Made by a program: the position numbers and the translations under genes. From positions 2,530,146-2,594,145 of the forward strand of contig OZ250160.1 of the NCBI GenBank assembly GCA_965237835.1: a DNA stretch of 64,000 bases, written 5' to 3'. Shown piece after piece: positions 10,637 to 58,623 of this stretch (position 1 is its first letter; each line of letters starts with the position of its first letter). The notes beneath the pieces are model-generated. The model made no database searches. It had not been told where the DNA came from and was given only the letters and a program-made list of their open reading frames with translations. This stretch comes from Candidatus Poribacteria bacterium (lineage in GTDB: Bacteria > Poribacteria > WGA-4E > WGA-3G).

Positions 10637-10910
10637 TATTTTTCATACTATGCACCCTTTCCGACCTAATACTGTGTCTCTATATTGTGAAAGGTGCCAT
10701 ATACCACTGTTTGGTCAATTCATGTCGGACTTTTGCGTAAATCCTATTATATAAGGAGTTTCAACTCTGGCTGTATTTTATTCTATTTTCCATTTGTTGT
10801 CAAATCTACTATGGATATTCAGTATCGTTAGGGATATGTGTATTGGTTAAATTATCCATGTATATCGCCGTATAAATCAATATTATCAAAAAAATATACG
10901 ATTACATGTC

Positions 10911-10929
10911 GGAATTGTCCCCAAATCTA
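10911..10929 (+). promoter_or_regulatory. Conserved upstream motif cGGAATTGTCCC-N-AAATCTA (candidate ECF-type promoter or operator)
   Basis: The same motif occurs at 14799-14819, 19611-19629 and 24121-24140, each directly upstream of a cassette gene (sigma or TPR-X). Confidence 0.35.
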
Positions 10930-10940
10930 CGTCATTATCA

Positions 10941-11712
10941 ATGAAGACAGTTAAAAATTTTTCTTGGAAGAGGGAAATCGAGGATGGTGCGCTGCATCGT
11001 CGGTTTTTGGAAACAGGCAGCGAAGCAGCACTGCGTTTGCTTATGCAGAAGTACTATAAGCCAATTTGTAGTCACGTTTTCGCGATCTTGAAAGATCATC
11101 AAGATGCAGATGAAATCACAAATGAAACCTTCCTCAAAGCCTTCAATAAGAGGGAAACGATCAAGTATCCTGATAAACTCGTGAGTTGGTTATATAAGAC
11201 CGCGAAAAATGCGGCGATTGAGCGATTAAGAGCCAGACAACGAGATGTTCACCAGATGCTCGATTTAGTCTCTCTTGATAATTTGGATGCTGAAAGAGAA
11301 GCTGCAGCCGCATCAATATTTGCGGCACAGCAGATTGAGACTGATCAATACTTGTTGACAAGTCTGCTGCGACTTCATAACGGAAAAGGATCGTGAGGTT
11401 GTAGAATACTTATTAGATGACCTAAAGCCGAAGCAGATTGCTGAAGTGATAGACTCCACACCGGAAGCAGTTCAGAAAAGATGGGAACGGATACTCAAGT
11501 GGTTAAGCCCGATTGCTCACCGATTAGACGAACTGCTTAATAACCTTCCGCCTCAAGAACGGAAAATAATGGAACGGTATTTAGATAATCAACCTCTTGA
11601 AGAGATTAGTGAAAAATTAGGTATCTCCCCGACTAATGTTAAAGCATGCGTGAAACGTGTGATGAAGCAGTGGAAGAAAACCACAAGGCAAACGCCACGA
11701 AACGGAGGATAA
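10941..11712 (+). pseudogene. ECF (sigma-70 family) sigma factor, split by an apparent +1 frameshift near 11375-11380
   Basis: Region 2 (ETFLKAF, KLVSWLYKTAKNAAIERLRARQR) lies in frame 0 and ends at 11396. A region-4 HTH (EISEKLGISPTNVKACVKRV) continues in another frame to 11712. Deleting one A in the A-run restores LRLHNGKDREVVEYLLDDL. Confidence 0.6.
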
Positions 11713-11713
11713 T

Positions 11714-12472
11714 ATGCTTCGCGACATCTGGACAAATAAATGGTTTATCGGTGGCTTTGGTTTTCTGATTGTTTTCGCGGTGCTGTGTTACTTCTGGTAC
11801 CAACACGATATTGCGTCATTCCAACAACAGTTATCGGCTACCGGTGATATTGTCTTTCAAGGGGATCTATCTCAAAAGGCACAAAAAACCGTTCAAACAG
11901 ACGTGCCGCTGATAGAATCTCTTGAATCTGTAGAAAATAGGTCTGAATCTGTTAGGGATACGTCGGTTCCCACAGAGAAGACAACAGAAAAAACCGACAC
12001 GTTTGAGATAAACACAAATTTAACTGCGGATGCTCCTATCTCTCCCTTTGGATTTGGTGCGTATCCTGAAGTTCCCGCTGATTATCCGTTTCAGGAACAA
12101 CTTTGGGATAATGCCACGCCAGAGCATGAGTTGTTAGTCCGAGTCGAAGTTAAGTTATGGAAACAAGGCACACAAACTAAAGGCTCTATGTTTGATCCTA
12201 ATAATGGTCTCATTTATCCATCTATTCCTGGTGTCCTTTACGTGCAATGGCGTTACATTGAAGAAGGAGACCCAGATTTAGTAGGGCAACGGTATGCCGG
12301 TAGAGTAAGCGGTGACGGAGATACTGCTAAAAAGTGGCAATCCTTATACCTTACTGACCGTATGTTTGAACGCACAGACGTAACGCATGACACTGAGGCA
12401 TCAGGTATAAAGATTTATGAGTACCCAGACGGGGGTATAGACCCCTACAAATTCCTCGATTTAACGAGGTAA
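11714..12472 (+). CDS. Cassette protein X1: N-terminal signal-anchor TM helix plus a conserved ~150-aa C-terminal domain of unknown function
   Basis: TM segment WFIGGFGFLIVFAVLCYFWY. The C-domain SPFGFGAYPEVPADYPFQE...YEYPDGGIDPYKFLDL is shared with 15254-16051, 19810-20568 and 24258-25397. Confidence 0.7.
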   Translation: MLRDIWTNKWFIGGFGFLIVFAVLCYFWYQHDIASFQQQLSATGDIVFQGDLSQKAQKTVQTDVPLIESLESVENRSESVRDTSVPTEKTTEKTDTFEINTNLTADAPISPFGFGAYPEVPADYPFQEQLWDNATPEHELLVRVEVKLWKQGTQTKGSMFDPNNGLIYPSIPGVLYVQWRYIEEGDPDLVGQRYAGRVSGDGDTAKKWQSLYLTDRMFERTDVTHDTEASGIKIYEYPDGGIDPYKFLDLTR

Positions 12473-12482
12473 GGAAAATAAA

Positions 12483-13256
12483 ATGAAATTGTATCGTGTT
12501 CTTTTACTAATTTTCTGTTCAGGCATCCTCTTCGTTGGTGTCGTTAGTGATATTTCAGCAGCAGGTTTTGATCGTGACGGTCCCTATGAAGCTTCTGTAG
12601 ATGCCCGTCGCTTTGGCGGAAATGAAAACAGATTACATGTCAATTTGTATGCAAGGGCTTCTAGTACTGACCGAGCGAGAAATGGTTACTTGAATATATT
12701 TCTTAAGATAACTAACGGATGGTCAGTAGATCCGGCTGTTACCCCTGTTGATAGTCACGTCTGGCTTTGGGATCACCGTGATTTTCAGTTTGAAGAAAAC
12801 GGAGGCTATGTTTATGCATATGCTTCTGGACAAGACACAGGGAGAGCCTGGTATACCGCCTACACTGACGACACTGCGGAGCCGATGCCTCCTCCTGATC
12901 CTCCACCCGCCACCAACCCCACCAACCCCACCAACCCCGAACCACAATTGGGCATATCCCCCGTAGATCCAGATGACACTCCTTATCCCGGCGAAGCACA
13001 TGAGTACAGACTTGTCACAGATGCACCTTATTACTATGTGTATTGGTATGTGAAGGCACCTTGGGAGACAAGTGAACGCGGATCATATATAGGGAGTGAC
13101 TCAGGTGACGGCACGACAACTGAAGCAACATTCAGTTACACGTTCCCGAGCGGTGCAATGCATACTGGAGATTTTCTGATAACAGCGGTCATTTACCGGT
13201 GGTCAGATATGTCTGAGTATGAGGAGACCTATACTGCGACTGTGTTGTTAGATTAA
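12483..13256 (+). CDS. Cassette protein Y1: secreted protein with a variable N-domain, a Pro-rich linker and a conserved C-terminal domain
   Basis: Signal peptide. Linker PMPPPDPPPATNPTNPTNPEPQLGISPVDPDD. The C-domain (...YYYVYWYVKAPWETSERG...YEETYTATVLLD) is shared with 16066-16836 and 20579-21358. RBS-coupled 10 bp after X1. Confidence 0.7.
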   Translation: MKLYRVLLLIFCSGILFVGVVSDISAAGFDRDGPYEASVDARRFGGNENRLHVNLYARASSTDRARNGYLNIFLKITNGWSVDPAVTPVDSHVWLWDHRDFQFEENGGYVYAYASGQDTGRAWYTAYTDDTAEPMPPPDPPPATNPTNPTNPEPQLGISPVDPDDTPYPGEAHEYRLVTDAPYYYVYWYVKAPWETSERGSYIGSDSGDGTTTEATFSYTFPSGAMHTGDFLITAVIYRWSDMSEYEETYTATVLLD

Positions 13257-13292
13257 AAATTATGTCACATTTATCAGTATGAATAACAATAG

Positions 13293-13330
13293 ACAGGTAA
13301 CTTTGCGGTTACCTGTCTTCTCTTTTTATC
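13293..13330 (+). terminator. Rho-independent terminator after Y1 (copies follow Y2 and Y3)
   Basis: acaggtaac-tttgc-ggttacctgt followed by cttctctttttat. Confidence 0.6.
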
Positions 13331-13338
13331 AGAAAAAG

Positions 13339-13367
13339 TTGACATGTAACATGTATACGCGTATATT
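13339..13367 (+). promoter_or_regulatory. Near-consensus sigma-70 promoter upstream of the WD40 gene
   Basis: TTGACA, 17-nt spacer, TATATT. Identical in the duplicated intergenic segments at 16919 and about 21437. Confidence 0.5.
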
Positions 13368-13544
13368 ATCTGAACCAGGATTTTCAGGATTATCAGATTT
13401 TCAGGATTATAGATACTTCCTCAAATGAACAAGGACTTTGTTGAGAAATATAGATTTGAAGATAATACTAGCAGAAGATAGCCATCCATCTAAAAGCATA
13501 CTAATCCTGATAATCCCATAATCCTGTCCATCCTGGTTCAGACA
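13368..13544. repeat. ~177-bp element bounded by ~40-bp imperfect inverted repeats (tctgaaccaggatt...aatcctggttcaga), MITE-like family 2, forming the 5' leader of the WD40 gene
   Basis: Left arm tctgaaccaggattttcaggattatcag, right arm ctaatcctgataatcccataatcctgtccatcctggttcaga. A complete copy lies at 34728-34852 and partial copies near 31716, 52640 and 55385. Confidence 0.5.
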
Positions 13545-13643
13545 ATCCGAGATTTAGACAGAACCTTTGACATTTAATCCAACACATAGTAGAATAAACA
13601 CAACGTTAATTGGTATTAGAACAGCACATAGGAGAACACACCC

Positions 13644-14753
13644 ATGAGAAACAGATTGTTTTCAATTTTTACAGCACTGTTTGTAGCACTCCCATTTATG
13701 ACCTGCAGTCTCCCATCAGGTTCATTGGAGGATCCGCTGCATGATCCACAGCAAGCCCCGCAGCAAGAGCATTTACCCGAAGGCGCGAAAGGGCGCATCA
13801 AGAAAGACAGGATCAATGATATAGCGTATTCACCAGACGGCACAAAGCTCGCTGTAGCAGGTGGTAGCGGTATTTGGCTCTACGATGCACAGACAGGTCA
13901 TGAACTTGTCCAATTCGCAGGACATACCGGTAAAGTCCACAACGTGGCATTTAGTCCGGATGGAAAGACTATCGTAAGTGCCGGTACCAGTTACGATCGG
14001 ACCATTCGTATATGGGATGTGAACACGGGAAGAAACCTACGAACATTCAAATATCAGGTCTTTGACGTTGCGTTTAGTCCGGATGGAAAGACGATCATAA
14101 GTGGCAGTCATGACAAAAACCTCTACTTATTGGATGCGGACACAGGTAAACTCCTACGCACCCTCTCTGGGCATACGGATTTTGTCTGGTACGTGGCGTT
14201 TAGTCCGGACGGAAAAACTATTGCAAGTCGCAGTCAAGACCAGACCATTTGTCTGTGGGATGCGGACATAGGTAAACTCCTACAAACAATCACATGGCAT
14301 TCGCATCTGCCCAAGCATCCTCTCAAGCATCCTCTCAATACCGTAATTTTTAGTCCTGATGGAAAGATGATCGCAAGTGTTGGTGATGACCAGACTATTT
14401 GGCTGTGGGATGTGAACACGGGAAAACAACTACGAACAATCGCAAGAAACACGTCTCCTCATCGTAAGAACTTGGCATTTAGTCCGGATGGAAGCATGAT
14501 TGCATGTAACAATTGGAAGGATATTGATCTGTGGGATGTGAACACGGGAAAACTCCTACGAACACTCACAGGGTATCGGGAGAATAACCCACCGCGTCGG
14601 GACCGGTTCAGCGGACATATTTTAGGATCCCCCTGGGTCTTTATGGTGGTGTTCAGTCCGGATGGAAAGACTATCGCAGGTGCCAGTGGGCATGGCGTCC
14701 ATCTGTGGGATGTGAACACGGGATACCTCCAAAAACTCATCAGTGGTTTTTGA
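13644..14753 (+). CDS. WD40 repeat beta-propeller protein with N-terminal secretion/lipoprotein-like signal (WD40-1)
   Basis: Repeated [21 protein letters not shown] WD40 units. Signal [17 protein letters not shown]. Confidence 0.85.
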   Translation: MRNRLFSIFTALFVALPFMTCSLPSGSLEDPLHDPQQAPQQEHLPEGAKGRIKKDRINDIAYSPDGTKLAVAGGSGIWLYDAQTGHELVQFAGHTGKVHNVAFSPDGKTIVSAGTSYDRTIRIWDVNTGRNLRTFKYQVFDVAFSPDGKTIISGSHDKNLYLLDADTGKLLRTLSGHTDFVWYVAFSPDGKTIASRSQDQTICLWDADIGKLLQTITWHSHLPKHPLKHPLNTVIFSPDGKMIASVGDDQTIWLWDVNTGKQLRTIARNTSPHRKNLAFSPDGSMIACNNWKDIDLWDVNTGKLLRTLTGYRENNPPRRDRFSGHILGSPWVFMVVFSPDGKTIAGASGHGVHLWDVNTGYLQKLISGF

Positions 14754-14935
14754 TACGACCGCGCTGCGGTCTGTTGTAAAATGCCAATTTTCTGTTAGCG
14801 GAATTGTCCCTTAAATCTATCTATAAGAGAAAACTCTCATAGAATAATAGCATCTGTTTGCAAGCATTCCTATCTGGTTTTGTGAATTAAATTCTAAACG
14901 TCCCTGTTAATTTCTACTTGGTAAGGAGAAAAATC

Positions 14936-16051
14936 ATGAAATTTGTCAACTTCTGTCTGTTTACTACTTTTGTTCTTACAACAGTAATGCAAATCGGATG
15001 TTTGTCCGGTGGTGCGATGGGTACTGCGGAAAAATTAAGTGAGACGAAAGACTATCGCGGTGCATTAGAAGTCTATCAAAATGTTGTAGATACCAAACCC
15101 GGTACTGCTGACGCGCGCGCAGCACAACTCGCAATAGGTGAACTCTACATTGAGCATATACATTAACCCGAACAAGGGATTGAAACTTATGAAGCGGTCA
15201 TTGCTGAAGCACCCACAAGCGATGAAGCTGCAGAGGCACACTATCGTCTCGGGATGCACGCCTATCGCCAAAAAGACTATGACGCAGCGCAAACCCAATT
15301 TGGTACTATTGTTAACCATTTTTCGCATCTGGAATTGAGTCACAACGCACAACTGATGTCGGCAAAAAGTTATGAGGATGGGCAAAAATTTGAACAAGCT
15401 GTAGAAGTTTATGATAATTTTGCGAACCGCAACCCACAGAGTAAACGCGCTGCACAAGCCCTCGCCAATAAAGCACGAATACAACGCAAATTCCTTAAAG
15501 ATGATGATGAAGCGATACGTACCCTGCAATTATTAGTCATAAAATACGGCAAAATTAAGAGCGCAGAATCATACGTTAAAGAAGCTAAAAAAGTATTAAT
15601 TGAATTCAATGTCTCTCCTTTTGGATTTGGTGCATATCCTGAAGTTCCCGCCGATTATCCATTTCAGGAGCGACTTTGGGATAATGCCACGCCAGAGAAT
15701 GAGTTGTTAATCCGAGTTCAGATTAAGTTATGGAATCAAGGAACACGAACTAAAGGTGCAGCGTTTAGTAGTAATGGTCTCGTTTATCCCACAATTTCTG
15801 GTGTCCTTTACGTAGAATGGCGTTACATTGAAGAAGGTGACCCAGATTTAGTAGGGCGACGGTATGCCGGTACAGTAAGCGGTGACGGAGAGACTGCTAA
15901 AAAGTGGCGATCTTTATACCTTACTGACCGTATGTTTGAGCGCACAGACGTAACGCATGACACTAAGGTATCAGGTATAAAGATTTATGAGTATCCAGAT
16001 GGAGGAATAGACCCCTACAAATTCCTCGATTTACCGAGGCAAGGAGAATAA
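14936..16051 (+). pseudogene. Cassette protein X2: TPR lipoprotein carrying the conserved X C-domain, interrupted by an in-frame TAA at 15164-15166
   Basis: The intact paralog at 24258-25397 reads CAA (Q) where this copy reads TAA. Lipobox MQIGC. TPR-like helices. The downstream ORF 15254-16051 carries the X C-domain. Confidence 0.6.
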
Positions 16052-16065
16052 AATGAAACTGTCCA

Positions 16066-16836
16066 GTGTTTTTTTACTTTTCATGCGTTGTCCTCTTCGT
16101 TGTTGCAGTTGGTGATATTTCAGCAGCTGTTGGACAGGACGGTCCCTATACTGCTGAAGCATACGGCTATCGCGTGGGCGGAATTAATAATGACAGATTA
16201 AATGTCAGTTTGTCTGGTAGGGCTAGTAGTACTGTGTTTGGAAGTGACGGTTATTATAAAATAGAGTTATTTAAAGAACTACCCAGCGGATGGAGTATAA
16301 TTGCTGAACAGGACGAGGTTGATACACATGGTGGTCAAATTGATGGCCACTTCTATGTAAACCTAGACTTAGATCTTCCTAGGGAAGAATACGCATGCTT
16401 TATTGACGTTGATGTTAGTGGTAGAGCGACAAATGGAAGGTACTGTTTTGCGGATGCTGATGAATATGTGGGACCGATGCCTCCACCTCCCCCTAATCCT
16501 CAACTCATCATCGACCCCGAACCACAAGTGGGCATATCCTCCGTAGATCCAGATGACACTCCTTATCCGGGGAACACATACGAGTTCAGACTTATCACAG
16601 ATGTCCATTATTATTGGGTGGACTGGTATGTGAAAGCACCCTGGGAGACAAGTGAAAGGGGAACACATATAGAAGGTCAATTAGGAGATGGCGAGACAAC
16701 TGAATCTACATTCAGTTACACGTTCCCGAGCGGTGCAATGCATACTGGAGATTTTCTGATAACAGCGGTCATTTACCGGTGGTCAGATATGTCTGAGTAT
16801 GAGGAGACCTATACTGCGACTGTGTTGTTAGATTAA
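16066..16836 (+). CDS. Cassette protein Y2 (secreted; variable N-domain, conserved C-domain); the native ATG at 16053 is out of frame through a T7 homopolymer, so the ORF opens at a GTG
   Basis: The ATG at 16053 reads into a TGA. A T7 run at 16068-16074 sits in the signal-peptide codons. The C-terminal 100 aa are almost identical to Y1 and Y3. Confidence 0.55.
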   Translation: MFFYFSCVVLFVVAVGDISAAVGQDGPYTAEAYGYRVGGINNDRLNVSLSGRASSTVFGSDGYYKIELFKELPSGWSIIAEQDEVDTHGGQIDGHFYVNLDLDLPREEYACFIDVDVSGRATNGRYCFADADEYVGPMPPPPPNPQLIIDPEPQVGISSVDPDDTPYPGNTYEFRLITDVHYYWVDWYVKAPWETSERGTHIEGQLGDGETTESTFSYTFPSGAMHTGDFLITAVIYRWSDMSEYEETYTATVLLD

Positions 16837-17223
16837 AAATTATGTCACATTTATCAGTATGAATAACAATAGACAGGTAACTTTGCGGTTACCTGTCTTC
16901 TCTTTTTATCAGAAAAAGTTGACATGTAACATGTATACGCGTATATTATCTGAACCAGGATTTTCAGGATTATCAGATTTTCAGGATTATAGATACTTCC
17001 TCAAATGAACAAGGACTTTGTTGAGAAATATAGATTTGAAGATAATACTAGCAGAAGATAGCCATCCATCTAAAAGCATACTAATCCTGATAATCCCATA
17101 ATCCTGTCCATCCTGGTTCAGACAATCCGAGATTTAGACAGAACCTTTGACATTTAATCCAACACATAGTAGAATAAACACAACGTTAATTGGTATTAGA
17201 ACAGCACATAGGAGAACACACCC

Positions 17224-18333
17224 ATGAGAAACAGATTGTTTTCAATTTTTACAGCACTGTTTGTAGCACTCCCATTTATGACCTGCAGTCTCCCATCAGG
17301 TTCATTGGAGGATCCGCTGCATGATCCACAGCAAGCCCCGCAGCAAGAGCATTTACCCGAAGGCGCGAAAGGGCGCATCAAGAAAGACAGGATCAATGAT
17401 ATAGCGTATTCACCAGACGGCACGAAGCTCGCGGTGGCAGGTGGTAGCGGTATTTGGCTCTATGATGCACAGACAGGTCATGAACTTGTCCAATTCGCAG
17501 GACATACCGGTAAAGTCCACAACGTGGCATTTAGTCCGGATGGAAAGACTATCGTAAGTGCCGGTACCAGTTACGATCGGACCATTCGTATATGGGATGT
17601 GAACACGGGAAGAAACCTACGAACATTCAAGTATCAGGTCTTTGACGTTGCGTTTAGTCCGGATGGAAAGACGATCATAAGTGGCAGTCATGACAAAAAC
17701 CTCTACTTATTGGATGCGGACACAGGTAAACTCCTACGCACCCTCTCTGGGCATACGGATTTTGTCTGGTACGTGGCGTTTAGTCCGGACGGAAAAACTA
17801 TCGCAAGTCGCAGTCAGGACAAGACCATTTGTCTGTGGGATGCGGACATAGGTAAACTCCTACAAACAATCACATGGCATTCGCATCTGCCCAAGCATCC
17901 TCACAAGCATCCTCTCAATACCGTAATTTTTAGTCCTGATGGAAAGATGATCGCAAGTGTTGGTGATGACCAGACTATTTGGCTGTGGGATGTGAACACG
18001 GGAAAACAACTACGAACAATCGCAAGAAACACGTCTCCTTATCGTAAGAACTTGGCATTTAGTCCGGATGGAAGCATGATTGCATGTAACAATTGGAAGG
18101 ATATTGATCTGTGGGATGTGAACACGGGAAAACAACTACGAACACTCACAGGGTATCGGGAGAATAACCCATCGCATCGGGACCGGTTCAGCGGACATAT
18201 TTTAGGAAACCCCAGCATCTTTACGGTGGTGTTTAGTCCGGATGGAAAGACTATCGCAGGTGCCAATAGGCGTGGCGTCCATCTGTGGGATGTGAACACG
18301 GGGTACCTCCGAAAACTCATCAGTGGTTTTTGA
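17224..18333 (+). CDS. WD40 repeat lipoprotein-like protein (WD40-2), near-identical to WD40-1
   Basis: 369 aa with only a few substitutions relative to 13644-14753. The upstream 387 bp is identical to 13257-13643. Confidence 0.85.
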
Positions 18334-18351
18334 TACGACCGCGCTGCGGTA

Positions 18352-18579
18352 TTAGGTATTTAGAACAGCACAAAAGGAGAACACACCCATGAAAAATAGC
18401 ACGAAACCAACTTTGTTGACATTTCCAACGCAAACCCTCCTCTTTGAGCCATTCCCAGATCGTTGAATCAGAAGATGAATACCCGTTTTCTCTGTAAACG
18501 CAGTTTGCAATCGTCCCAGTGTCCATACCTCAAATGGATAACCGAGACTACGCGGTTTTTGCAACGCTAAATCTATCAT
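18352..18579 (-). pseudogene. Remnant of an IS630-family transposase N-terminal HTH region
   Basis: [24 protein letters not shown]...RSGNGSKRR resembles the winged-HTH region of IS630/Tc1 transposases. Only ~75 aa remain. Confidence 0.35.
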
Positions 18580-19640
18580 ACCATATTAACTTGATTAGAA
18601 GTCTTTTGATATAGCACACGGTTGCGAGGCACGGGGACCTCGCGCTACAGATCGGGTTAATTTGGTATCAGTTGACCGCGCACCTCCGTTGAATGAATAC
18701 GCGGTTTACCGCTTTTCGGTTTATCAGCAGGTTTTCCTTTGATACCTTTTTCGTTCACGCAGCAGATATACTTGATTTGAAACCCGCTTGTTTTGCTGCT
18801 TGGGCAGCTGTCAGGGTGTTGTCATCAATCATGCTGACAATCAACCTGGCTCTCTGCACAGTCCGATAACATCTCCTCTATTTATAGCCCTCCGATCACT
18901 GTGTATTTATACCATTCTAAGTGATTATGTTGTGTTAGTTCGTAGGTTCGGTAGAGCGGTAACGAAACCATAAGTGTCAATTTAGTAGTCTTCCAACCCC
19001 GGTAGGTGCGGTTTCCTAACCGCACTATAACCGTCACCAAGTCTAACCGTAGATAAAGGGATACCACTCTCCATTGATAGAATACGAGGCTTCACTAGGT
19101 ATCTCATCACCATTAGCGAGTCCGGAAATGGGTTGGGTTAGTAAACAGACAGCTGCTAGTGCAAAAAGTATGTAGGTGCAAAAGGGGGCATGATATGAAA
19201 AAAGTTGGAAATGTTGAATGTCCACGGTTGAACGTAGGTGTGTAATTATCGGATATTTGCTATCTGGAATACGCAGGGCTGCATTTTTTGACACTGGGAA
19301 GTAATATGGGGGGGCTGGTTGTTTTGAAAAAGTCGTTGCGAGGCGTTTTTGACAGGAATTCGTTATATCGTAATGTTGGTCTGTTCAGATGTGCGATACG
19401 CGCATATGTGCAGCAGTCGCACACGTGCGCAGCACTCGGTGTTCATCTTGCCATATTATTAAAAGGTGTCAGGGATATCGTGCCCTAATATTTTATCCAT
19501 CTTTCAACGAACATTCTAACAGTATCGTTAGGGATATGTGTATTGGTTAAATTATCCATGTATATCGCCGTATAAATCAATATTATCAAAAAAATATACG
19601 ATTACATGTCGGAATTGTCCCCAAATCTACGTCATTATCA

Positions 19641-19808
19641 ATGAAGACAGTTAAAAATTTTTATAGGGAACGGTATTTAGACAATCAACCTCTCAAAGAG
19701 ATTAGTGAAAAATTGGGTATTTCTCTGACTAATGTTGAAGTATGCGTGAAACGTGTGATAAAGCAGTGGAAGAAATCCACAAGGCAAACGCCACGAAACG
19801 GAGGATAA
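19641..19808 (+). pseudogene. In-frame internal-deletion remnant of the ECF sigma gene (55-aa ORF retaining only the region-4 HTH)
   Basis: The first 7 codons (MKTVKNF) are fused to YRERYLDNQPLKEISEKLGISLTNVEVCVKRV. The upstream 140 bp is identical to 10800-10940. Confidence 0.5.
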
Positions 19809-19809
19809 T

Positions 19810-20568
19810 ATGCTTCGCGACATTTGGACAAATAAATGGTTTATCGGTGGCTTCGGTTTTCTGATTGTTTTCTCGGTGCTGTGTTACTTCTGGTACCAAC
19901 ACGATATAGCGTCATTCCAACAACAGTTATCGGCTACCGGTGATATTGTCTTTCAAGGGGATCTATCTCAAAAGGCACAAAAAACCGTTCAAACAGACGT
20001 GCCGCTGATAGAATCTCTTGAATCTGTAGAAAATAGGTCTGAATCTGTTAGGGATACGTCGGTTCCCACAGAGAAGACAACAGAAAAAACCGACACGTTT
20101 GAGATAAACACAAAATTAACTGCGGATGCTCCTACTTCTCCCTTTGGATTTGGTGCATATCCTGAAGTTCCCGCTGATTATCCGTTTCAGGAACGACTTT
20201 GGGATAACGCCACGCCAGAGCATGAGTTGTTAGTCCGAGTCGAAGTTAAGTTATGGAAACAAGGCACACAAACTAAAGGCTCTATGTTTGATACTAATAA
20301 TGGTCTCATTTATCCGACTATTCCTGGTGTCCTTTACGTGAAATGGCGTTACATTGAAGAAGGAGACCCAGATTTAGTAGGGCGAAGGTATGCCGGTAGA
20401 GTAAGCGGTGACGGAGATACTGCTAAAAAGTGGCAATCCTTATACCTTACTGACCGTATGTTTGAACGCACAGACGTAACGCATGACACTGAGGCATCAG
20501 GTATAAAGATTTATGAGTACCCAGACGGGGGTATAGACCCCTACAAATTCCTCGATTTAACGAGGTAA
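19810..20568 (+). CDS. Cassette protein X3 (TM anchor plus conserved X C-domain), near-identical to X1
   Basis: 252 aa with a handful of substitutions relative to 11714-12472. Confidence 0.7.
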   Translation: MLRDIWTNKWFIGGFGFLIVFSVLCYFWYQHDIASFQQQLSATGDIVFQGDLSQKAQKTVQTDVPLIESLESVENRSESVRDTSVPTEKTTEKTDTFEINTKLTADAPTSPFGFGAYPEVPADYPFQERLWDNATPEHELLVRVEVKLWKQGTQTKGSMFDTNNGLIYPTIPGVLYVKWRYIEEGDPDLVGRRYAGRVSGDGDTAKKWQSLYLTDRMFERTDVTHDTEASGIKIYEYPDGGIDPYKFLDLTR

Positions 20569-20578
20569 GGAAAATAAA

Positions 20579-21358
20579 ATGAAATTGTATCGTGTTCTTT
20601 TACTTTTTTTCTTTTCATGCGCTATCCTCTTCGTTGGTGCAGTTAGTGATATTTCAGCAGATGCTCAAGTTAACGGTCCCTATACTGCTGAAGCATACGT
20701 TTATCGTGTTAACACAGCTAATGTCATATTGACCGCTAAAGCTAGTAGTACGCCGCGGGCAAAAAACGGTAAGTATAAATTAGTTGCAAATAAAGATTCA
20801 GATTTAAACAGACAGGTCGAAACTTGGGATCCACTTGAAGAACAAACCCACCTGGATACACATGGTGCTCCAATTGATGGTGAATTCTCCGAAGAGCTAA
20901 AAAGAAATTATCCTTCGACAGAATACGGATACCAGGCTAAATCACTTGTTGATGGACAATTGACAGATGGAGCTTTTCGTGCTGCTTTTGCTGAAGATAA
21001 AGTGGGCGAGATACCTATTCTTGAACCCACCCCCGTCCCTCAACCACAATTGGGCATATCCCCCGTAGATCCAGATGACACTCCTTATCCCGGCGAAGCA
21101 CATGAGTACAGACTTGTCACAGAGGCACCTTATTACTATGTGAATTGGTATGTGAAGGCACCTTGGGAGACAAGTGAACGCGGATCATATATAGGGAGTG
21201 ACTCAGGTGACGGCACGACAACTGAATCTACATTCAGTTACACGTTCCCGAGCGGTGCAATGCATACTGGAGATTTTCTGATAACAGCGGTCATTTACCG
21301 GTGGTCAGATATGTCTGAGTATGAGGAGACTTATACTGCGACTGTGTCATTAGATTAA
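20579..21358 (+). CDS. Cassette protein Y3 (secreted; divergent N-domain, conserved C-domain)
   Basis: Signal peptide. N-domain only distantly similar to Y1 and Y2 (DGPYTAEAY.YRV...ASST). C-terminal ~105 aa conserved. Confidence 0.7.
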   Translation: MKLYRVLLLFFFSCAILFVGAVSDISADAQVNGPYTAEAYVYRVNTANVILTAKASSTPRAKNGKYKLVANKDSDLNRQVETWDPLEEQTHLDTHGAPIDGEFSEELKRNYPSTEYGYQAKSLVDGQLTDGAFRAAFAEDKVGEIPILEPTPVPQPQLGISPVDPDDTPYPGEAHEYRLVTEAPYYYVNWYVKAPWETSERGSYIGSDSGDGTTTESTFSYTFPSGAMHTGDFLITAVIYRWSDMSEYEETYTATVSLD

Positions 21359-21768
21359 AATTACGTCGCATTTATCATTGTGAATAACAACAGACAGGTA
21401 TCCTTGAGGTTACCTGTCTTCTCTTTTTATCAGAAAAAGTTGACATGTAACATGTATACGCGTATATTATCTGAACCAGGATTCTCAAGATTACCAGATT
21501 TTCAGGATTATAGATACTTCCTCAAATGAACAAGGACTTTGTCGAGAAATATAGATTTGAAGATAATACTAACTAGCAGAAGATAGCCATCCATCTAAAA
21601 GCATACTAATCCTGTCCATCCTGGTTCAGACAATCCGAGATTCAGACAGAACCTTTGACATTTAATCCAACATATAGTAGAATAAACGCAACATTAAAAT
21701 GATTTATATTTAGCCCGCGTCTTTCTATCCAGATAGGTATTTAGCACAGCACACAGGAGAACACACCC

Positions 21769-22917
21769 ATGAGAAACAAATTGTTTTCAATTTTGACAGC
21801 ACTGTTTGTAGCACTCCCATTTATGACCTGCAGTCTTCCGCCAGGTTCACTGGAGGAACCGCTACATGATCCACAGCAGGAACCGCAGCAGAAACCGCAG
21901 CAAGAGCATTTACCCAATGGCGTGAAAGTGCCCCCCGGGAGAGTATGGGTTATGGATGTAAAATTTTCACCCGATGGCACATGTCTCGCGGTGGCGGGTG
22001 GCATCGGCATTTTGCTTTACGATACACAGACTTATGACAAACCGGACCTACTTAAAGGGCATACGGGTTATATATGGTGCATAGCGTTTCGTCCGGATGG
22101 AAAGGTGCTCGCAAGTGCAGGTCAGGACCGGACTGTCCGTTTGTGGGATGTGAACACGAGACAACAAATCAGAACATTTGGAATAAACTTGTATCCTACG
22201 TCAAACATAACATTTAGTCCGGATGGCAAGACACTCGCAAGCGCAACTGGAGGTAATAATACGAAGGATGTTATGAACGTCTATCTATGGGATGCAGACA
22301 CAGGTAAACGCCTACGCACACTCTCTGGGCATACGAATATAGTCAACGATGTGTCGTTTCGTCCGGATGGAAATATGCTCGCAAGTGCGTGTGACGACCA
22401 AACCGTCCGTCTGTGGGATGTGGAGACGGGACAACATATCAGAACACTATCTGGGCATACGAAGATGGTCGAGAGCGTTGCATTTAGTCCGGATGGAAAT
22501 ATGCTCGTAAGTGGAGGTGGGTATCATAATGCTGTCGCTCTGTGGAATGCGAACACGGGACAACAAATCAGAGCACTCACTATCAATGCACACTTGGAAC
22601 AACAAATCAATGTCCACATGGAAAAATATAGCAGACACATAGGCGCAAAAGGGGGGAGCAAGATTAGTGGAGAAGATGTGGCGTTCAGTCCGGATGGAAA
22701 CACTATCGCAAGTACCGGTCCTTCTTCCATCCATCTGTGGGATATGGGCTCGGGACAACACCACAGAATACTCCACAACGGAAAGTATCCTGATATAGCA
22801 ACAGATGTAGCGTTCAGTCCGGATGGAAACACTATCGCGTGTGTAGGTTGGTATGAAGCACATGTGTGGGATGTGGAGACGGGAAAACTCATCCGAATAC
22901 TCATGGGCAAACATTGA
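21769..22917 (+). CDS. WD40 repeat lipoprotein-like protein (WD40-3, divergent paralog)
   Basis: Same signal and leader as the other WD40 genes. WD40 units FSPDG....LWDV. Confidence 0.85.
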   Translation: MRNKLFSILTALFVALPFMTCSLPPGSLEEPLHDPQQEPQQKPQQEHLPNGVKVPPGRVWVMDVKFSPDGTCLAVAGGIGILLYDTQTYDKPDLLKGHTGYIWCIAFRPDGKVLASAGQDRTVRLWDVNTRQQIRTFGINLYPTSNITFSPDGKTLASATGGNNTKDVMNVYLWDADTGKRLRTLSGHTNIVNDVSFRPDGNMLASACDDQTVRLWDVETGQHIRTLSGHTKMVESVAFSPDGNMLVSGGGYHNAVALWNANTGQQIRALTINAHLEQQINVHMEKYSRHIGAKGGSKISGEDVAFSPDGNTIASTGPSSIHLWDMGSGQHHRILHNGKYPDIATDVAFSPDGNTIACVGWYEAHVWDVETGKLIRILMGKH

Positions 22918-22971
22918 TACTACCGTTCTGTGGTATTAGGTATTTAGAACAGCACACAGGAGAACACACCC

Positions 22972-24075
22972 ATGAGAAACAGATTGTTTTCAATTTTCAC
23001 AGCACTGTTTATAAAACTAACATTTCTGAGCTGCAGTCTCCCACCCGGTTCATTGGAGGATCCGCTGCATGATCCACAGCAAGCCCCGCAGCAAGAGCAT
23101 TTACCCGAAGGCGCGAAAGGGCGCATCAAGAAAGACAGGATCCATGATATAGCGTATTCACCAGATGGCACGAAGCTAGCGGTGGCAGGTGGTAGCGGTA
23201 TTTGGCTCTACGATGCACAGACAGGTCATGAACTTGTCCAATTCGCAGGACATACCTATACAGTCCACAACGTGGCATTTCGTCCAGACGGAAAGACTAT
23301 CGTAAGTGCCGCTATCGGTTACGATCAGACCATTCGTATATGGGATGTGAACACGGGAAGAAACCTACGAACATTCAGGTATGTGGCCTTTGACGTCGCG
23401 TTTAGCCCGGATGGAAAGATGATCGTAAGTGGCGGTCATGACAAAAACCTCTATTTACTGGATGCGGACACAGGTAAACTCGTACGCACCCTCTCTGGGC
23501 ATACGGATTTTGTCTGGAGCGTGGCGTTTAGTCCGGATGGAAAAACTATCGCAAGTCGCAGTCAGGACAAGACCATTCGTCTGTGGGATGCGAACACAGG
23601 AAAACTCCTGCGAACACTCACAATGGATACGCATCTGCCCAAGTATTTTCTCAATATCGTAATTTTTAGTCCTGATGGAAAAGTGATCGCAAGTGTTGGT
23701 AATGACCGGACCATTTGTCTGTGGGATGCTAACACGGGAAAACGCCTACGAACAATCGCAAGAAATACGACTCCTTTTCATAAAAACTTGGCATTTAGTC
23801 CGGATGGAAGCATGATCGCATGCAACAATTGGCTCGATATTGACCTATGGGATGTGAACAACGGAAAACTCCTACGAACACTCACAGGGTATAGGGAGAA
23901 TAACCCATCGCGTCGGGAGTGGAGGAGAGGACATATTGGACTTATAGGACCCCCCGGAATCTTTACGGTGGTGTTCAGTCCGGATGGAAAGACTATCGCA
24001 GGTGCCAGTGTGCATGGCGTCCATCTGTGGGATGTGAACACGGGGTACCTCCGAAAACTCATCAGTGGTTTTTGA
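22972..24075 (+). CDS. WD40 repeat lipoprotein-like protein (WD40-4)
   Basis: Closest to WD40-1 and WD40-2. The downstream 165 bp is identical to 14754-14917. Confidence 0.85.
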   Translation: MRNRLFSIFTALFIKLTFLSCSLPPGSLEDPLHDPQQAPQQEHLPEGAKGRIKKDRIHDIAYSPDGTKLAVAGGSGIWLYDAQTGHELVQFAGHTYTVHNVAFRPDGKTIVSAAIGYDQTIRIWDVNTGRNLRTFRYVAFDVAFSPDGKMIVSGGHDKNLYLLDADTGKLVRTLSGHTDFVWSVAFSPDGKTIASRSQDKTIRLWDANTGKLLRTLTMDTHLPKYFLNIVIFSPDGKVIASVGNDRTICLWDANTGKRLRTIARNTTPFHKNLAFSPDGSMIACNNWLDIDLWDVNNGKLLRTLTGYRENNPSRREWRRGHIGLIGPPGIFTVVFSPDGKTIAGASVHGVHLWDVNTGYLRKLISGF

Positions 24076-24257
24076 TACGACCGCGCTGCGGTCTGTTGTA
24101 AAATGCCAATTTTCTGTTAGCGGAATTGTCCCTTAAATCTATCTATAAGAGAAAACTCTCATAGAATAATAGCATCTGTTTGCAAGCATTCCTATCTGGT
24201 TTTGTGAATTAAATTCTAAACGTCCCTGTTAATTTCTACTTGGTAAGGAGAAAAATC

Positions 24258-25397
24258 ATGAAATTTGTCAACTTCTGTCTGTTTACTACTTTTGTTCTTA
24301 TAACAGTAATGCAAATCGGATGTTTGTCCGGTGGTGCGATGGGTACTGCGGAAAAATTAAGTGAGACGAAAGACTATCGCGGTGCATTAGAAGTCTATCA
24401 AAATGTTGTAGATACCAAACCCGGTACTGCTGACGCGCGCGCAGCACAACTCGCAATAGGTGAACTCTACATTGAGCATATACATCAACCCGAACAAGGG
24501 ATTGAAACTTATGAAGCGGTCATTGCTGAAGCACCCACAAGCGATGAAGCTGCAGAGGCACACTATCGTCTCGGGATGCACGCCTATCGCCAAAAAGACT
24601 ATGACGCAGCGCAAACCCAATTTGGTACTATTGTTAACCAATTTTCGCATCTGGAATTGAGTCACAACGCACAACTGATGTCGGCAAAAAGTTATGAGGA
24701 CGGGCAAAAATTTGAACAAGCTGTAGAAGTTTATGATAATTTTGCGAACCGCAACCCACAGAGTAAACGCGCTGCACAAGCCCTCGCCAATAAAGCGCGA
24801 ATACAACGCAAATTCCTTAAAGATGATGATGAAGCGATACGTACCCTGCAATCATTAGTCATAAAATACGGCAAAATTAAGAGCGCAGAATCATACGTTA
24901 AAGAAGCTAAAAAAGTATTAATTGAATTCAATGTCTCTCCTTTTGGATTTGGTGCATATCCTGAAGTTCCCGCCGATTATCCATTTCAGGAGCGACTTTG
25001 GGATAATGCCACGCCAGAGCATGAGTTGTTAGTCCGAGTCGAAGTTAAGTTATGGAATCAAGGAACACGAACTAAAGGTGCAGCGTTTAGTAGTAATGGT
25101 CTCGTTTATCCCACAATTTCTGGTGTCCTTTACGTAGAATGGCGTTACATTGAAGAAGGTGACCCAGATTTAGTAGGGCAACGGTATGCGGGACGTGTAA
25201 TGGGTGACGGAGATACTGCTAAAAAGTGGCGATCTTTATACCTTACTGACCGTATGTTTGAGCGCACAGACGTAACGCATGACACTGAGGTATCAGGTAT
25301 AAAGATTTATGAGTATCCAGATGGAGGAATAGACCCCTACAAATTCCTCGATTTACCGAGGTTTGATGTTGAATTGAGAGAAGGAGGCAAAAACTAA
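24258..25397 (+). CDS. Cassette protein X4: intact TPR lipoprotein fused to the conserved X C-domain
   Basis: RBS AAGGAG 7 nt upstream of the ATG at 24258. Lipobox IGC. TPR-like repeats. C-domain SPFGFGAYPEVPADYPFQER... Confidence 0.75.
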   Translation: MKFVNFCLFTTFVLITVMQIGCLSGGAMGTAEKLSETKDYRGALEVYQNVVDTKPGTADARAAQLAIGELYIEHIHQPEQGIETYEAVIAEAPTSDEAAEAHYRLGMHAYRQKDYDAAQTQFGTIVNQFSHLELSHNAQLMSAKSYEDGQKFEQAVEVYDNFANRNPQSKRAAQALANKARIQRKFLKDDDEAIRTLQSLVIKYGKIKSAESYVKEAKKVLIEFNVSPFGFGAYPEVPADYPFQERLWDNATPEHELLVRVEVKLWNQGTRTKGAAFSSNGLVYPTISGVLYVEWRYIEEGDPDLVGQRYAGRVMGDGDTAKKWRSLYLTDRMFERTDVTHDTEVSGIKIYEYPDGGIDPYKFLDLPRFDVELREGGKN

Positions 25398-30039: not shown

Positions 30040-30850
30040 GTAGGTCGGGTAGAGCGTCCGCGAAACCCATAAGCGTCAATTTAAGAAAAGTCTGCGTTTT
30101 TATAAACACCTCTCAATAAGCATGAGGACTGAGATTGTCTTATATTTAGTCCCGTAGGGACGAAATGTTTATAGTACCTCGTCCTGCAAACCCATCTCTT
30201 CAGCTCCGTAGGAGCGAAATGTGTATAACGTCTTATTATAAACATATTGCCCCGCTGGGGAAATCAAAGAGCATTTTTCATATTTGAAATATCACTAAAT
30301 TGACGCCTATGGGTAGAGCGTCCGCGAAACCCGACAAGATTATTGTATCAGCACATGCCGGGTTTCGCTCTGCTCTACCCATAGGCGTCAATTTAAGAAA
30401 AGTCTGCGTTTTTATAAACACCTCTCAATAAGCATGAGGACTGAGATTGTCTTATATTTAGTCCCGTAGGGACGAAATGTTTATAGTACCTCGTCCTGCA
30501 AACCCATCTCTTCAGCTCCGTAGGAGCGATATGTGTATAACGTCTTATATAAACATATCGCCCCGTTGGGGAAATCAAAGAGCATTTTTCATATTTGAAA
30601 TATCACTAAATTGACACCTATGGGTTTCGCTCTGCTCTACCCATTAACGTCAATTTAGGCGTTTTTTGAGAATGAGACATGCTCTTTAATCCCGTAGGGA
30701 CGCAATGTTTATAGCAACGGAGGCACCCCCCCAATTCTTTAGCCCCGACGAATGCCATACGCGCATTCGGCGTTGATTTGGTAAGGGCGGAATGTTTATA
30801 ACGTGTTATTTCACATCTCACAATTAAAAAGTTGACATCTGCCCTTAGAT
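30040..30850. repeat. Mosaic REP/BIME-like repeat cluster: two ~300-bp units of hairpin modules delimited by taaattgacgcctatg...palindrome REPs
   Basis: The unit aagaaaagtctgcg...cccgtagggacgaaatgtttatag...ccgtaggagcgaaatgtgtataac...ccccgctgggg occurs twice. Related clusters lie at 36895-37510 and 49400-50120. Confidence 0.6.
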
Positions 30851-33259: not shown

Positions 33260-34504
33260 TTATTCCACCGGTTGATATTTAGCTGCATCCACAAAATAGA
33301 GGAAGCCAATGCACATTTCATCTGTGGTTTTGTCTCCCCAACCGACGGGGACAGGTGGGTCGTGCGGGTTGGCTGGGTTCTTGACAGAATTGTCAAAGTG
33401 CGCAACAAGTGAAATACGCGTGCCAGCAGGAAGGAAGATCGGTTTACGATAATGATAGATGTCTTGCCAGTTGAAATCCCAATCCTGTATCCAGATAATA
33501 TCAATCGGATCGCCTGTCGGCGGTTTCGCAATGATCCGCATATCGCGTCCGAGCAGATGCATGTGTGGCATCGTGGCTAACAGATAACTATCCTTTTTGA
33601 CTTGACGCGATGCTTTCACAGGATACTTCGCCTCTCCGGCGGGGATTACGAATTTGTCGTTGATCGCCATACCGATCTCTAAAGGCGTTGTCTCCGGCGT
33701 TTTGGAGAAGTAAAGCCCAACTCGTGATTGGTCGCGTTCCGTGTGCCCAGTGCGGTAGTAATGCACCTGTAGCACGATGTCAGCACCTTTCGGTAACAGA
33801 TACCCGACACCTTTCGGTAGAACGGAAGGTCTGAGACCGGGTGCCCATCCGCCAAGTGTTCCCGCTGAATCAATGCCTGGACCGGTACCTTGTGTGACAT
33901 ACCCGGGTTTCGGGTCTTTCGCAGCAAGTTTACGGGCTTCTTCCTTCGTATCTAAATAGACAATGACGTGATGCACTGTCCTGCGGTTGCCCGGTTGAAC
34001 ATCAACGGCTTGGACATATATGTCTGTGTCAAAGTTGGTGGGAATGATAAAGTGCCGATATTCGTCTTCACCTTCCGGTTCAATTTCGTATTCCACTGGC
34101 ATTTCAAAGATATGATCAGGTTCACCGAGTGCCCACCCATCGTGGAATTTGGGGTTCGGTGGTGTTTTTGAGAGATCGCCTGCTGGTTTCCCTGCTTCTG
34201 CCCATTTGGTGATCATCTCAATCTCTTTGTCGGTGAGTCTACGTTCGTTTTTGAATTCACCATGTCCGACTGTTGGTTTCCAAGGCGGCATCAGGCGCGC
34301 TTTGGTGTATTCAGCAATTTCGGTCGCCCATGCTTTGGCGTCTCTATAGTCAGTGAGTGCAAAGGGTGCGACTTCACCTTGACGATGGCAGGATTGACAC
34401 TGTTTCTGTAGAATCGGTGCGATGTGTTCGCTGTAGGTGACTTCTGCCCGTAGGCAGGGTGCAAGTAGTGTAAACGTGATAAGTATGATTAAGAACTTTC
34501 TCAT
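33260..34504 (-). CDS. Secreted PSCyt1 (planctomycete-type cytochrome c) domain protein fused to a DBH/PHM-like copper monooxygenase-like domain
   Basis: Signal peptide. Haem motif CQSCH within HIAPILQKQCQSCHRQGEVAPFALTDY. Candidate Cu ligands HHVIVY, H~65 aa later, HMH and a downstream Met, spaced as in copper type II monooxygenases. Confidence 0.55.
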   Translation of the reverse strand: MRKFLIILITFTLLAPCLRAEVTYSEHIAPILQKQCQSCHRQGEVAPFALTDYRDAKAWATEIAEYTKARLMPPWKPTVGHGEFKNERRLTDKEIEMITKWAEAGKPAGDLSKTPPNPKFHDGWALGEPDHIFEMPVEYEIEPEGEDEYRHFIIPTNFDTDIYVQAVDVQPGNRRTVHHVIVYLDTKEEARKLAAKDPKPGYVTQGTGPGIDSAGTLGGWAPGLRPSVLPKGVGYLLPKGADIVLQVHYYRTGHTERDQSRVGLYFSKTPETTPLEIGMAINDKFVIPAGEAKYPVKASRQVKKDSYLLATMPHMHLLGRDMRIIAKPPTGDPIDIIWIQDWDFNWQDIYHYRKPIFLPAGTRISLVAHFDNSVKNPANPHDPPVPVGWGDKTTDEMCIGFLYFVDAAKYQPVE

Positions 34505-34588: not shown

Positions 34589-34710
34589 CAGGGTTATTTA
34601 GTTTTAGGCTTTTTGTCCATTTTATCCGAAAAGTCGCGATTCGGAGATCGCTCGGACAGCGGAAAGTCTTAAATTGAAAACCTAAATATTCGGAGAACTA
34701 AATAGCCCTG
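34589..34710. mobile_element. MITE-like element family 1 (single copy) with 8-bp target-site duplication CTATCTGT
   Basis: TIRs cagggttatttagtt / aactaaatagccctg. Flanking direct repeat ctatctgt. Confidence 0.65.
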
Positions 34711-48233: not shown

Positions 48234-48355
48234 CAGGGCTATTTAGTTCTCCGAATATTTAGATTTTCAATCTAAGACTTTCCGCTGTAGGAGCGATCTC
48301 CGAATCGCGACTTTTCGTCTAAAATGGACAAAAAGTCTAAAACTAAATAACCCTG
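48234..48355. mobile_element. MITE-like element family 1 (single copy) with 8-bp TSD CATAACAA
   Basis: TIRs cagggctatttagtt / aactaaataaccctg, flanked by cataacaa on both sides. Confidence 0.65.
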
Positions 48356-48457
48356 CATAACAAGATTTAATTTGAAAGAGATTATATCTCATGATATACT
48401 CTACAGCAAAAAAGTTTTCGGTTTATAGTCGTGACGCCTAAAGAATAGGAGTTTGCC

Positions 48458-58561: not shown

Positions 58562-58594
58562 TAGGCACACTCCGTGTGCCATAAACCATATTCC

Positions 58595-58623
58595 TTGATA
58601 TTTTCTTCGGAATGTGCTATTAT
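58595..58623 (+). promoter_or_regulatory. Sigma-70-type promoter for the SIR2-NTPase operon
   Basis: TTGATA, 17 nt, TATTAT. Confidence 0.45.

Follow-up and report, generated by a model that had tools for sequence, protein, structure and literature searches.

Two damaged genes of an ECF-type sigma family with two region-4 domains in a tandem array of Candidatus Poribacteria

Results

Two damaged sigma factor genes

A 64,000-nucleotide stretch of a Candidatus Poribacteria chromosome (contig OZ250160.1, positions 2,530,146 to 2,594,145, forward strand; hereafter the window) contains two genes for a sigma factor of the extracytoplasmic function (ECF) type, and neither has an intact reading frame in this genome. 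Copy 1 is interrupted by a one-base insertion, and copy 2 has been reduced by an in-frame internal deletion to a stub of 55 amino acids (aa). Homology E-values were extreme for both copies, so that neither resemblance is due to chance. Candidatus Poribacteria is a phylum of sponge symbionts. The best explanation, which we consider probable but short of secure, is that the two loci are heads of sigma-led cassettes in a strain-variable tandem array, in which redundant sigma copies decay after cassette duplication while sigma-dependent promoters persist. The features of the two loci are listed below; sigma2, sigma4a and sigma4b denote the conserved domains of the encoded protein, ORF an open reading frame and X1 the gene downstream.

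10820..10940, + strand: head module upstream of copy 1, with TCGGAAT at 10909-10915, a 14-nt spacer and CGTC at 10930-10933
10941..11396, + strand: 5' reading frame of copy 1; 151-aa product with sigma2 and linker, premature TGA at 11394-11396
11377..11377, + strand: inserted A in copy 1, cause of the frameshift, placed by alignment to locus L002
11378..11712, + strand: 3' part of copy 1 in frame +1, with the rest of sigma4a, sigma4b, the X1 ribosome-binding site and the stop
10965..11568, + strand: segment absent from copy 2, in copy 1 coordinates; codons 9-209, covering sigma2, linker, sigma4a and the first helix of sigma4b
19520..19640, + strand: head module upstream of copy 2, with TCGGAAT at 19609-19615 and CGTC at 19630-19633
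19641..19808, + strand: stub ORF of copy 2, 55 aa; codons 1-7, junction Tyr-Arg (19662-19667), 46 C-terminal codons and the native stop

Copy 1 is frameshifted by a single inserted base

The sigma2 domain of copy 1 (Pfam residues 34-101; 11040-11243) lies in frame 0, which runs from 10941 to 11396, and frame +1 is open from 11359 to the stop at 11710-11712, through sigma4a (about 11358-11520), sigma4b (about 11521-11670) and the GGAGGA ribosome-binding site of X1 (11704-11709). Removal of one base gives a continuous protein of 256 aa that is a normal member of its family, which bears out a first-pass annotation of this DNA as encoding a frameshifted ECF-type sigma factor. Compared with the intact gene for protein P0001 (L002:10001-10780), copy 1 has exactly one extra base, A 11377, and the repaired protein shares 88% aa identity with P0001, 28 of 256 codons being different. 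The placement of the insertion is unique: the window reads CTTC[A]TAACGG (CTTCATAACGG), where the homologous loci L002, L081 and L082 all read CTTCTAACGG. The first-pass annotation had the position right but the context wrong, since it placed the frameshift in a run of A; the inserted A is flanked by C and T, and the AAAA at 11384-11387 is equally long in intact homologs. Ortholog comparison, which had been proposed as a check, showed that the site is intact in these three loci and also in the syntenic ortholog L007 on chromosome OZ244616.1 (gene order methylase-GNAT-ADH-sigma-X1-X3-WD40), a single frame with ~94% nucleotide identity.

Downstream of the insertion, copy 1 showed no further stops or indels relative to its homologs, which makes the insertion a recent event or else an error. 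After 11359, frame +1 offers no start codon before a GTG at 11446, within the helix-turn-helix (HTH) of sigma4a, and copy 1 therefore yields no useful C-terminal fragment. A sigma factor split into two polypeptides was rejected, as no start codon gives a fragment containing sigma4a. The 151-aa ORF is identical to the database protein P0053, which was called only on ERZ26167216:ctg495931_47.62x_c. Scans of Joint Genome Institute metagenomes for the frameshifted site, the intact site and the stub junction gave no matches. The linker between sigma2 and sigma4 (11315-11335; L002, L081, L082) carries short in-frame tandem repeats whose copy number differs between close homologs, with units of 9 nt (GGCACAGCA) and 12 nt (GCAGATTGAGAC) encoding AQQ and IETQ; a 9-nt difference from L002 at 11323/11324 is an in-frame change of repeat copy number.

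Damaged members are found throughout the family. Among 74 genome loci, about 50 are intact, L016, L026, L027, L059 and L069 are frameshifted, and about 16 are 5'-truncated remnants, of which L076 and L077 also have an internal stop. In L003 a single T was inserted independently, in GA[T]AAAGG, 8 nt downstream of the window insertion (L003:2969-3000). In L004 an internal deletion beginning directly behind EKDL puts the gene out of frame and takes away both region-4 domains (L004:4380-4520). Both lesions lie within about 25 nt of the frameshift site of the window, a clustering that may be a coincidence of detectable fragment length. Within the window array itself, a paralog of the TPR-X1c gene (14918-16051) has TAA at 15164-15166 where the 24240-25397 copy (385 aa) has CAA, and is by this comparison a second pseudogene in the same array.

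These observations bear on whether the copy 1 frameshift could be an artefact of assembly or sequencing, or the call of a minor variant, with the sigma gene intact in the organism; we consider this unlikely. Such an error would fit with the lack of secondary lesions and the intact close relatives, with a repetitive region whose 96% identical paralogs could confound a consensus, and with the fact that the frameshift alleles (ORFs of 151 aa and 88 aa) are on record for this one contig only. However, the extra A lies outside any homopolymer, and the contig name gives 47.62x coverage of a circular sequence of 5.93 Mb (5,928,137 bp), in a naming style that may indicate a high-accuracy long-read assembly. 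Other long ORFs of the window, of up to 1353 aa, are unbroken. The array also contains a nonsense substitution, and lesions of that type are seldom created by such assemblies. Family members with frameshifts or internal deletions occur commonly in independent assemblies (L003, L004 and the five frameshifted loci above). Of the two alternatives offered by the first-pass annotation, an inactive sigma or an error, the pair stands, with a real mutation now favoured as the more probable. Copy 1 is most likely a recent null allele caused by a one-base insertion.

Copy 2 is a deletion stub

Self-BLAST and pairwise global alignments of the two copies showed that copy 2 has lost codons 9-209, a segment of 604 nt in copy 1 that consists of 603 nt of the repaired gene plus the inserted A; beyond the deletion, 11571-12561 and 19667-20660 are 96.5% identical. 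The in-frame internal deletion that had been described as removing region 2 is thus confirmed. The stub peptide reads MKTVKNF-YR-ERYLDNQPL...NGG*, and its exact sequence is on record on this genome only. It had been said to retain the region-4 HTH; in fact its HTH corresponds to profile positions 22-50 of 54 of Sigma70_r4_2 and comes from the extra C-terminal domain sigma4b, two-thirds of which are kept, while the first helix (profile positions 1-21) is lost. The X1 ribosome-binding site (GGAGGA) and the X1 ATG close behind it are kept as well. Modelled alone with AlphaFold, the 55-aa peptide forms three helices with a predicted local distance difference test score (pLDDT) of 70, versus 93-96 for the domain in context, a model of only moderate confidence that does not settle whether the peptide has a function.

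The deletion allele recurs in other strains

Deletions with identical endpoints were found in four other assemblies:

L082:16475: stub of 55 aa, junction Ser-Met; flanks orthologous to the window and ~99% identical
L002:14523: stub of 48 aa, in front of a different cassette
L083:10001: stub P0121, 58 aa, junction Tyr-Arg as in the window
L084:1640: stub P0130, its ORF frameshifted by 4 inserted nt; also a 12-nt insertion and a G>A change in the -35

An origin of the deletion in this genome is contradicted by these four assemblies. Three of the four other stubs have the Ser-Met junction, versus Tyr-Arg in the window, and the distribution of the two junction haplotypes, TCTATG and TATAGG, does not follow the flanking DNA. 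The stubs of the window and L082 differ by ~7 non-synonymous and 2 synonymous changes. Non-synonymous changes dominate in full-length genes and stubs alike, in counts that have no statistical power.

The same endpoints precede three types of cassette: X1-X3-WD40, a 237-aa protein with an STT3-like protein, and an 87-242-87 aa series. Full and deleted forms also alternate at the same sites. The radical-SAM/STT3-like site holds a full sigma in L081, a full sigma plus the stub in L002 and the stub only in L083. The ADH site holds a full sigma in L007 and, frameshifted, in the window, and the stub in L084. The crossover between L081 and L002 can be located only to an interval of ~35 nt. From these comparisons, the stub is a real allele, older than the strain, that has been moved among cassette heads by recombination.

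A conserved promoter motif outlasts the coding sequence

The head modules are identical over 143 nt (10820-10962 = 19520-19662, 100% by self-BLAST), compared with 96.5% for the DNA downstream. Both place an ATG 8 nt after CGTC, and a 27-nt promoter block, TGTCGGAATTGTCCCCAAATCTACGTC, occurs exactly twice in the window versus 0 times expected. Across the family, the motif TCGGAAT-N13-15-[CGT]GT[GC] was found within 260 nt upstream of 50 of 57 full-length genes, whose proteins are 40-88% identical, versus 3 of 1140 control windows. No sigma70-like promoter was predicted on the + strand. ECF sigma factors that transcribe their own genes usually show such a conserved upstream motif, and TCGGAAT-N14-CGT[C/G] is most likely the promoter by which this sigma would transcribe its own operon. 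The motif is still immediately upstream in three independently truncated loci with other junctions (L071, L072, L024), and the promoter is kept under constraint while sigma coding DNA decays.

The ATG right after the -10-like CGTC is itself part of an element, ATGAAGRCA, that is conserved at the DNA level across the family (10930-10964; L010, L011, L015, L017), and the eight codons kept in the stub correspond to it. In the subfamily of the window this ATG is the sigma start, which suggests a leaderless mRNA. In other subfamilies the ATG instead begins a short, out-of-frame ORF upstream of, and overlapping with, a Shine-Dalgarno-led start (GGAGGAGATGAAC).

An ECF-type family with a second region-4 domain

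The classification as an ECF (group 4) sigma was supported by profile searches. The repaired copy 1 protein matched the ECF superfamily model TIGR02937 over residues 30-188 (104.9 bits; cut-off 42.9), Pfam Sigma70_r2 (PF04542; E=1.3e-11, 44.6 bits; cut-off 24) and Sigma70_r4_2 (PF08281; E=4.4e-17, 61.9 bits; cut-off 25.7), and gave no Pfam match to sigma1.1 or sigma3 domains at E <= 0.1. None of the group-specific NCBIfam models reached its cut-off, the best being TIGR02985 with 84.7 bits versus 126.4. The family profile also matches the structures of SigW, SigH, SigE and AlgU.

The best Sigma70_r4_2 match, residues 194-242, lies beyond the canonical region 4. Profile positions 12-182, which hold sigma2 and sigma4a, cover the whole of SigW (5wuq, 187 residues); a canonical ECF sigma is thus covered by sigma2 and sigma4a, and sigma4b, in the C-terminal 70 residues, is an extension. 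By profile-profile alignment (hhalign probability 97.4%, E=1e-11, 27% identity), sigma4a and sigma4b are homologous, and the nearest solved single domain to sigma4b alone is the C-terminal HTH of NarL/LuxR proteins (NarL-C). Sigma4b is the most conserved part of the family, with the motifs MERYLD.QP and VKRVI..WKK. For structure modelling the intact homolog P0001 was used in place of repaired copy 1; its AlphaFold model gave a pLDDT of 93-96 for sigma4b, and its predicted template modelling score (pTM) of 0.46 makes the arrangement of the domains unreliable, so that no docking of sigma4b can be read from it.

We found 167 homologs, mostly full length at 240-266 aa. All 74 genome loci, from a set of bacterial and archaeal genomes with one genome per species, belong to Candidatus Poribacteria, as do all named homologs, and as found here the family appears restricted to this phylum. 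Literature searches turned up neither an ECF sigma described from Poribacteria nor an ECF group with tandem sigma4 domains; the two ECF classification papers that were searched mention neither Poribacteria nor a tandem-sigma4 group.

Downstream genes and the tandem array

Both sigma loci are followed by two genes, X1 and X3:

11714..13256, + strand: X1 (11714-12472) and X3 (12483-13256) downstream of copy 1; X1 with an N-terminal membrane anchor, X3 with a signal-peptide-like N-terminus
19810..21358, + strand: X1 (19810-20568) and X3 (20579-21358) downstream of the stub

The X1 protein behind the stub is 96.8% identical to that behind copy 1. These genes hold the position in which an anti-sigma factor would be expected, and the first-pass annotation had noted that they lack a cytoplasmic anti-sigma domain. 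Our analysis agrees: X1 starts with MLRDIWTNK, ~9 residues before a hydrophobic helix, X3 is signal-like, and neither has a match in Pfam or NCBIfam at E <= 0.1. Across 50 loci, the first downstream gene encodes varied small proteins, most with a hydrophobic segment at the N-terminus (first 50 residues, judged by eye). An adjacent anti-sigma factor with a cytoplasmic domain was thus found neither by the Pfam and NCBIfam searches of X1 nor by this inspection of the 50 loci, which was by eye only. The data fit the absence of a class-I anti-sigma factor. A missing anti-sigma neighbour is typical of ECF sigma factors that are regulated via a C-terminal extension (PMC8999054); for the Poribacteria sigma such regulation is suggested by comparison only.

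The ORF list, self-BLAST, Pfam and tblastn showed that the window from 10.8 to 25.4 kb is a tandemly duplicated array:

First unit, + strand: sigma (copy 1) - X1 - X3 - WD40 lipoprotein
Second unit: TPR-X1c - X3 - WD40, followed by an insertion sequence (IS) remnant
Third unit: stub (copy 2) - X1 - X3 - WD40 - WD40 - TPR-X1c
12934..25397, + strand: tandem segmental duplications of X3, WD40 lipoprotein and TPR-X1c units around both heads (self-BLAST, tblastn)

The duplications in 12934-25397 are nested, with units that are 80-97% identical, and the C-terminal ~145 aa of X1 recur there as the C-terminus of TPR proteins. The IS remnant upstream of the stub lies at 18352-18579 (- strand), and its ortholog in L082 adjoins a DDE_3/HTH_32 transposase. 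Two insertions set the window apart from L082: one of 92 nt (18574-18665), related to 52004-52094 in inverted orientation, and one of 441 nt (19123-19563), whose right end coincides exactly with the left edge (-78) of the conserved head module. Short dispersed repeats of two families (~122-140 nt at 570-841, 34589-34710 on the - strand and 48234-48356; 200-330 nt at 30065-30625, 36932-37495 and 49416-49755) occur in both orientations at 80-99% identity and look like miniature mobile elements. The Rfam scan of the window, dispersed repeats included, was empty, as was the tRNA scan.

A defence-type cluster at 55457-63801 encodes a Type ISP restriction-modification enzyme (1034 aa), a SIR2-like protein (351 aa) and a NACHT-domain protein (1353 aa). 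Loci homologous to the sigma cassettes also adjoin restriction-modification, SMODS/DncV-like, KwaA-domain and SLFN/AlbA_2 genes, which places the arrays in variable genome regions. The 695-aa protein encoded at 43169-45256 combines cadherin, leucine-rich-repeat and FlgD-Ig domains, a combination typical of the eukaryote-like surface proteins of sponge symbionts.

Discussion

How two sigma genes could be lost and their promoters kept

The reading that we hold to be probable runs as follows. The sigma factor would transcribe its own operon from TCGGAAT-N14-CGT[C/G], directly before the start codon, and a single sigma would serve all such promoters in trans; we infer this supply in trans. If one sigma suffices, duplicated copies are redundant and decay. 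Cassettes headed by sigma would have been duplicated and exchanged, and surplus sigma genes lost via frameshift or deletion. Copy 1 would have suffered a recent insertion that leaves a null, sigma2-only product of 151 aa, and copy 2 would carry an older deletion of codons 9-209 that was spread between heads by homologous recombination. Because the promoter, the start codon and the 3' end with the X1 ribosome-binding site are kept, copy 2 would serve the X1-X3-WD40 cassette as a promoter head that depends on sigma but no longer encodes it. Most probably the 55-aa peptide is a by-product, given that the prior for a deletion to be in frame is one in three, that one of five copies is broken, and that orthologous stubs show ~7 non-synonymous versus 2 synonymous changes.

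Several points weigh against this account. First, the case for autoregulation comes solely from the conservation of the motif. Second, the insertion in copy 1 may stem from an error of the consensus or from a minor variant of the strain. Third, the nearest representative genome, OZ244616.1, gave one family locus only in our scan, so that the strain may have lost its only sigma copy and an intact sigma acting in trans is putative. Lastly, four of the five stubs are open-framed and the deletion is codon-precise, as would be expected for a functional peptide, and the non-synonymous excess is also seen in full-length genes, so that the ratio of non-synonymous to synonymous rates (dN/dS) cannot separate constraint from decay.

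A possible functional state rather than decay

On a bolder and quite unlikely reading, the arrays would form a dedicated surface-variation system of Poribacteria, in which a sigma factor with sigma4b drives interchangeable cassettes of secreted, membrane-anchored, WD40 and TPR proteins. The promoter and the ends of the sigma gene would then be portable homology, or a specific site, for swapping, and the mini-head left by loss of codons 9-209 would be a maintained functional state. Such a mini-head could be a slave promoter, or could supply a free sigma4b peptide that tunes the sigma; the peptide could do so by competition for a conserved A/T-rich element just 5' of the -35 or for whatever partner the extra domain has.

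That the 55-aa stub is a functional small regulator in its own right, a free sigma4b-type HTH competing with full sigma for a DNA site or partner in dominant-negative or feedback fashion, seems decidedly improbable. The ORF is open in four of five copies behind a perfectly conserved promoter and start codon, the deletion is codon-precise, the most conserved residues of the family are kept (ERYLD.QP, VKRVI..WKK), and AlphaFold predicts a three-helix fold. Yet the first helix of the domain is gone and the stand-alone model reaches a pLDDT of only 70. The L084 copy is frameshifted and its -35 mutated, and orthologous stubs differ mainly non-synonymously, both junction codons included. Remnants in other lineages have different junctions, are often startless and sometimes contain internal stops (L076, L077), and one deletion in three would be in frame in any case. 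The dominant-negative role raised by the first-pass annotation thus found no support.

The recurrence of the stub endpoints could instead reflect dedicated cassette exchange, with the heads as substrates of site-specific recombination at codons 8/9 and 209/210 and the stub as a junction scar. The same endpoints before three cassette types and the alternation of full and stub forms at the same sites speak for it, as does L002, which equals L081 plus a block starting exactly at the Met-Glu-Arg-Tyr codon and ending at codon 8. But a recombinase is not consistently adjacent, repeats at the endpoints are limited to a 5-nt TGGAA that does not yield the observed junction, other lineages have other junctions, and the 35-nt crossover interval of L081/L002 is compatible with ordinary homologous recombination. 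A single ancestral deletion spread by gene conversion needs fewer assumptions, and we regard a dedicated exchange as very unlikely.

Scarcely credible is expression of copy 1 by programmed +1 ribosomal frameshifting at CUU-C-AUA, where tRNA-Leu slipping from CUU to UUC would bring back a near-consensus protein (...LLRLITEKDRE...) and L003 has its own 1-nt insertion 8 nt downstream: we rejected it because the shift is neither conserved, being needed neither by intact orthologs nor by nearly all family members, nor accompanied by stimulatory signals (no slow codon or stop in the A site, no upstream Shine-Dalgarno-like stimulator), while the L003 insertion lies in another position and context and the lesions of the five frameshifted loci are scattered.

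Comparison with known systems

ECF sigma factors with C-terminal extensions (ECF41, ECF42 and the SnoaL-type ECF56; PMC8999054, PMC7826278) likewise join a sigma2 and sigma4 core to a conserved extra domain, have no class-I anti-sigma factor next door and show a GGAA-type -35 and CGT-type -10 motif upstream of their own gene. Unlike in these groups, the extension of the Poribacteria sigma is an HTH of the sigma4/LuxR type. Among solved structures, the best match over the full length was the dCas12f-associated sigmaE (9n9q chain C; 10.1101/2025.06.10.658880; Foldseek E=1.3e-7, 21% identity), which is also ~260 aa long, with sigma2, sigma4 and a C-terminal HTH-like domain; the profile match extends to residue 241 of 261, inside that domain. 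In that system target recognition comes from dCas12f and a guide RNA (10.1101/2025.06.10.658880), whereas the Poribacteria family has its own conserved -35/-10 motif. No Cas12f or TnpB was found near the sigma genes among the Pfam-scanned ORFs of the window or the neighbours in L002, L081, L082 and L083; the ORFs at 33260-34504 and 46244-47563, which have no Pfam match, lie >20 kb from sigma. With no such neighbour and no Rfam match in the window, a dCas12f link was rejected.

In the Sus-like clusters of Bacteroidetes (Pinto et al. 2020, PMC7671368), the sigma gene is likewise duplicated with adjacent genes to give paralogous cassettes. What differs is that many Poribacteria heads lose the sigma coding sequence and keep the promoter, and that one deletion allele is common to cassettes and strains. 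Lesions of the kinds seen here (one-base frameshift, internal deletion, nonsense codon in a paralog nearby) are also what ordinary post-duplication pseudogenes show; unlike ordinary remnants, the stub keeps a perfectly conserved promoter and start and has identical endpoints in five assemblies. The two lesions are ordinary gene decay after duplication, and it is the sigma family, with its two DNA-binding tail domains, that is unusual.

Significance

The two damaged genes expose an uncharacterised ECF-type family, found here in Poribacteria only, in which a second sigma4/LuxR-like domain is conserved, a promoter is clearly predicted and an anti-sigma neighbour is lacking. The cassettes that it heads, which encode proteins with a membrane anchor or signal-like sequence at the N-terminus as well as WD40 and TPR proteins, vary between closely related symbiont strains; eukaryote-like repeat proteins of Poribacteria have been proposed to mediate the interaction between sponge and microbe (PMC3909097). 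Sigma-dependent promoters would outlive their sigma genes after duplication and, if this is true, a strain would need only one intact copy. If this strain has no intact sigma, the whole regulon would be expected to be silent.

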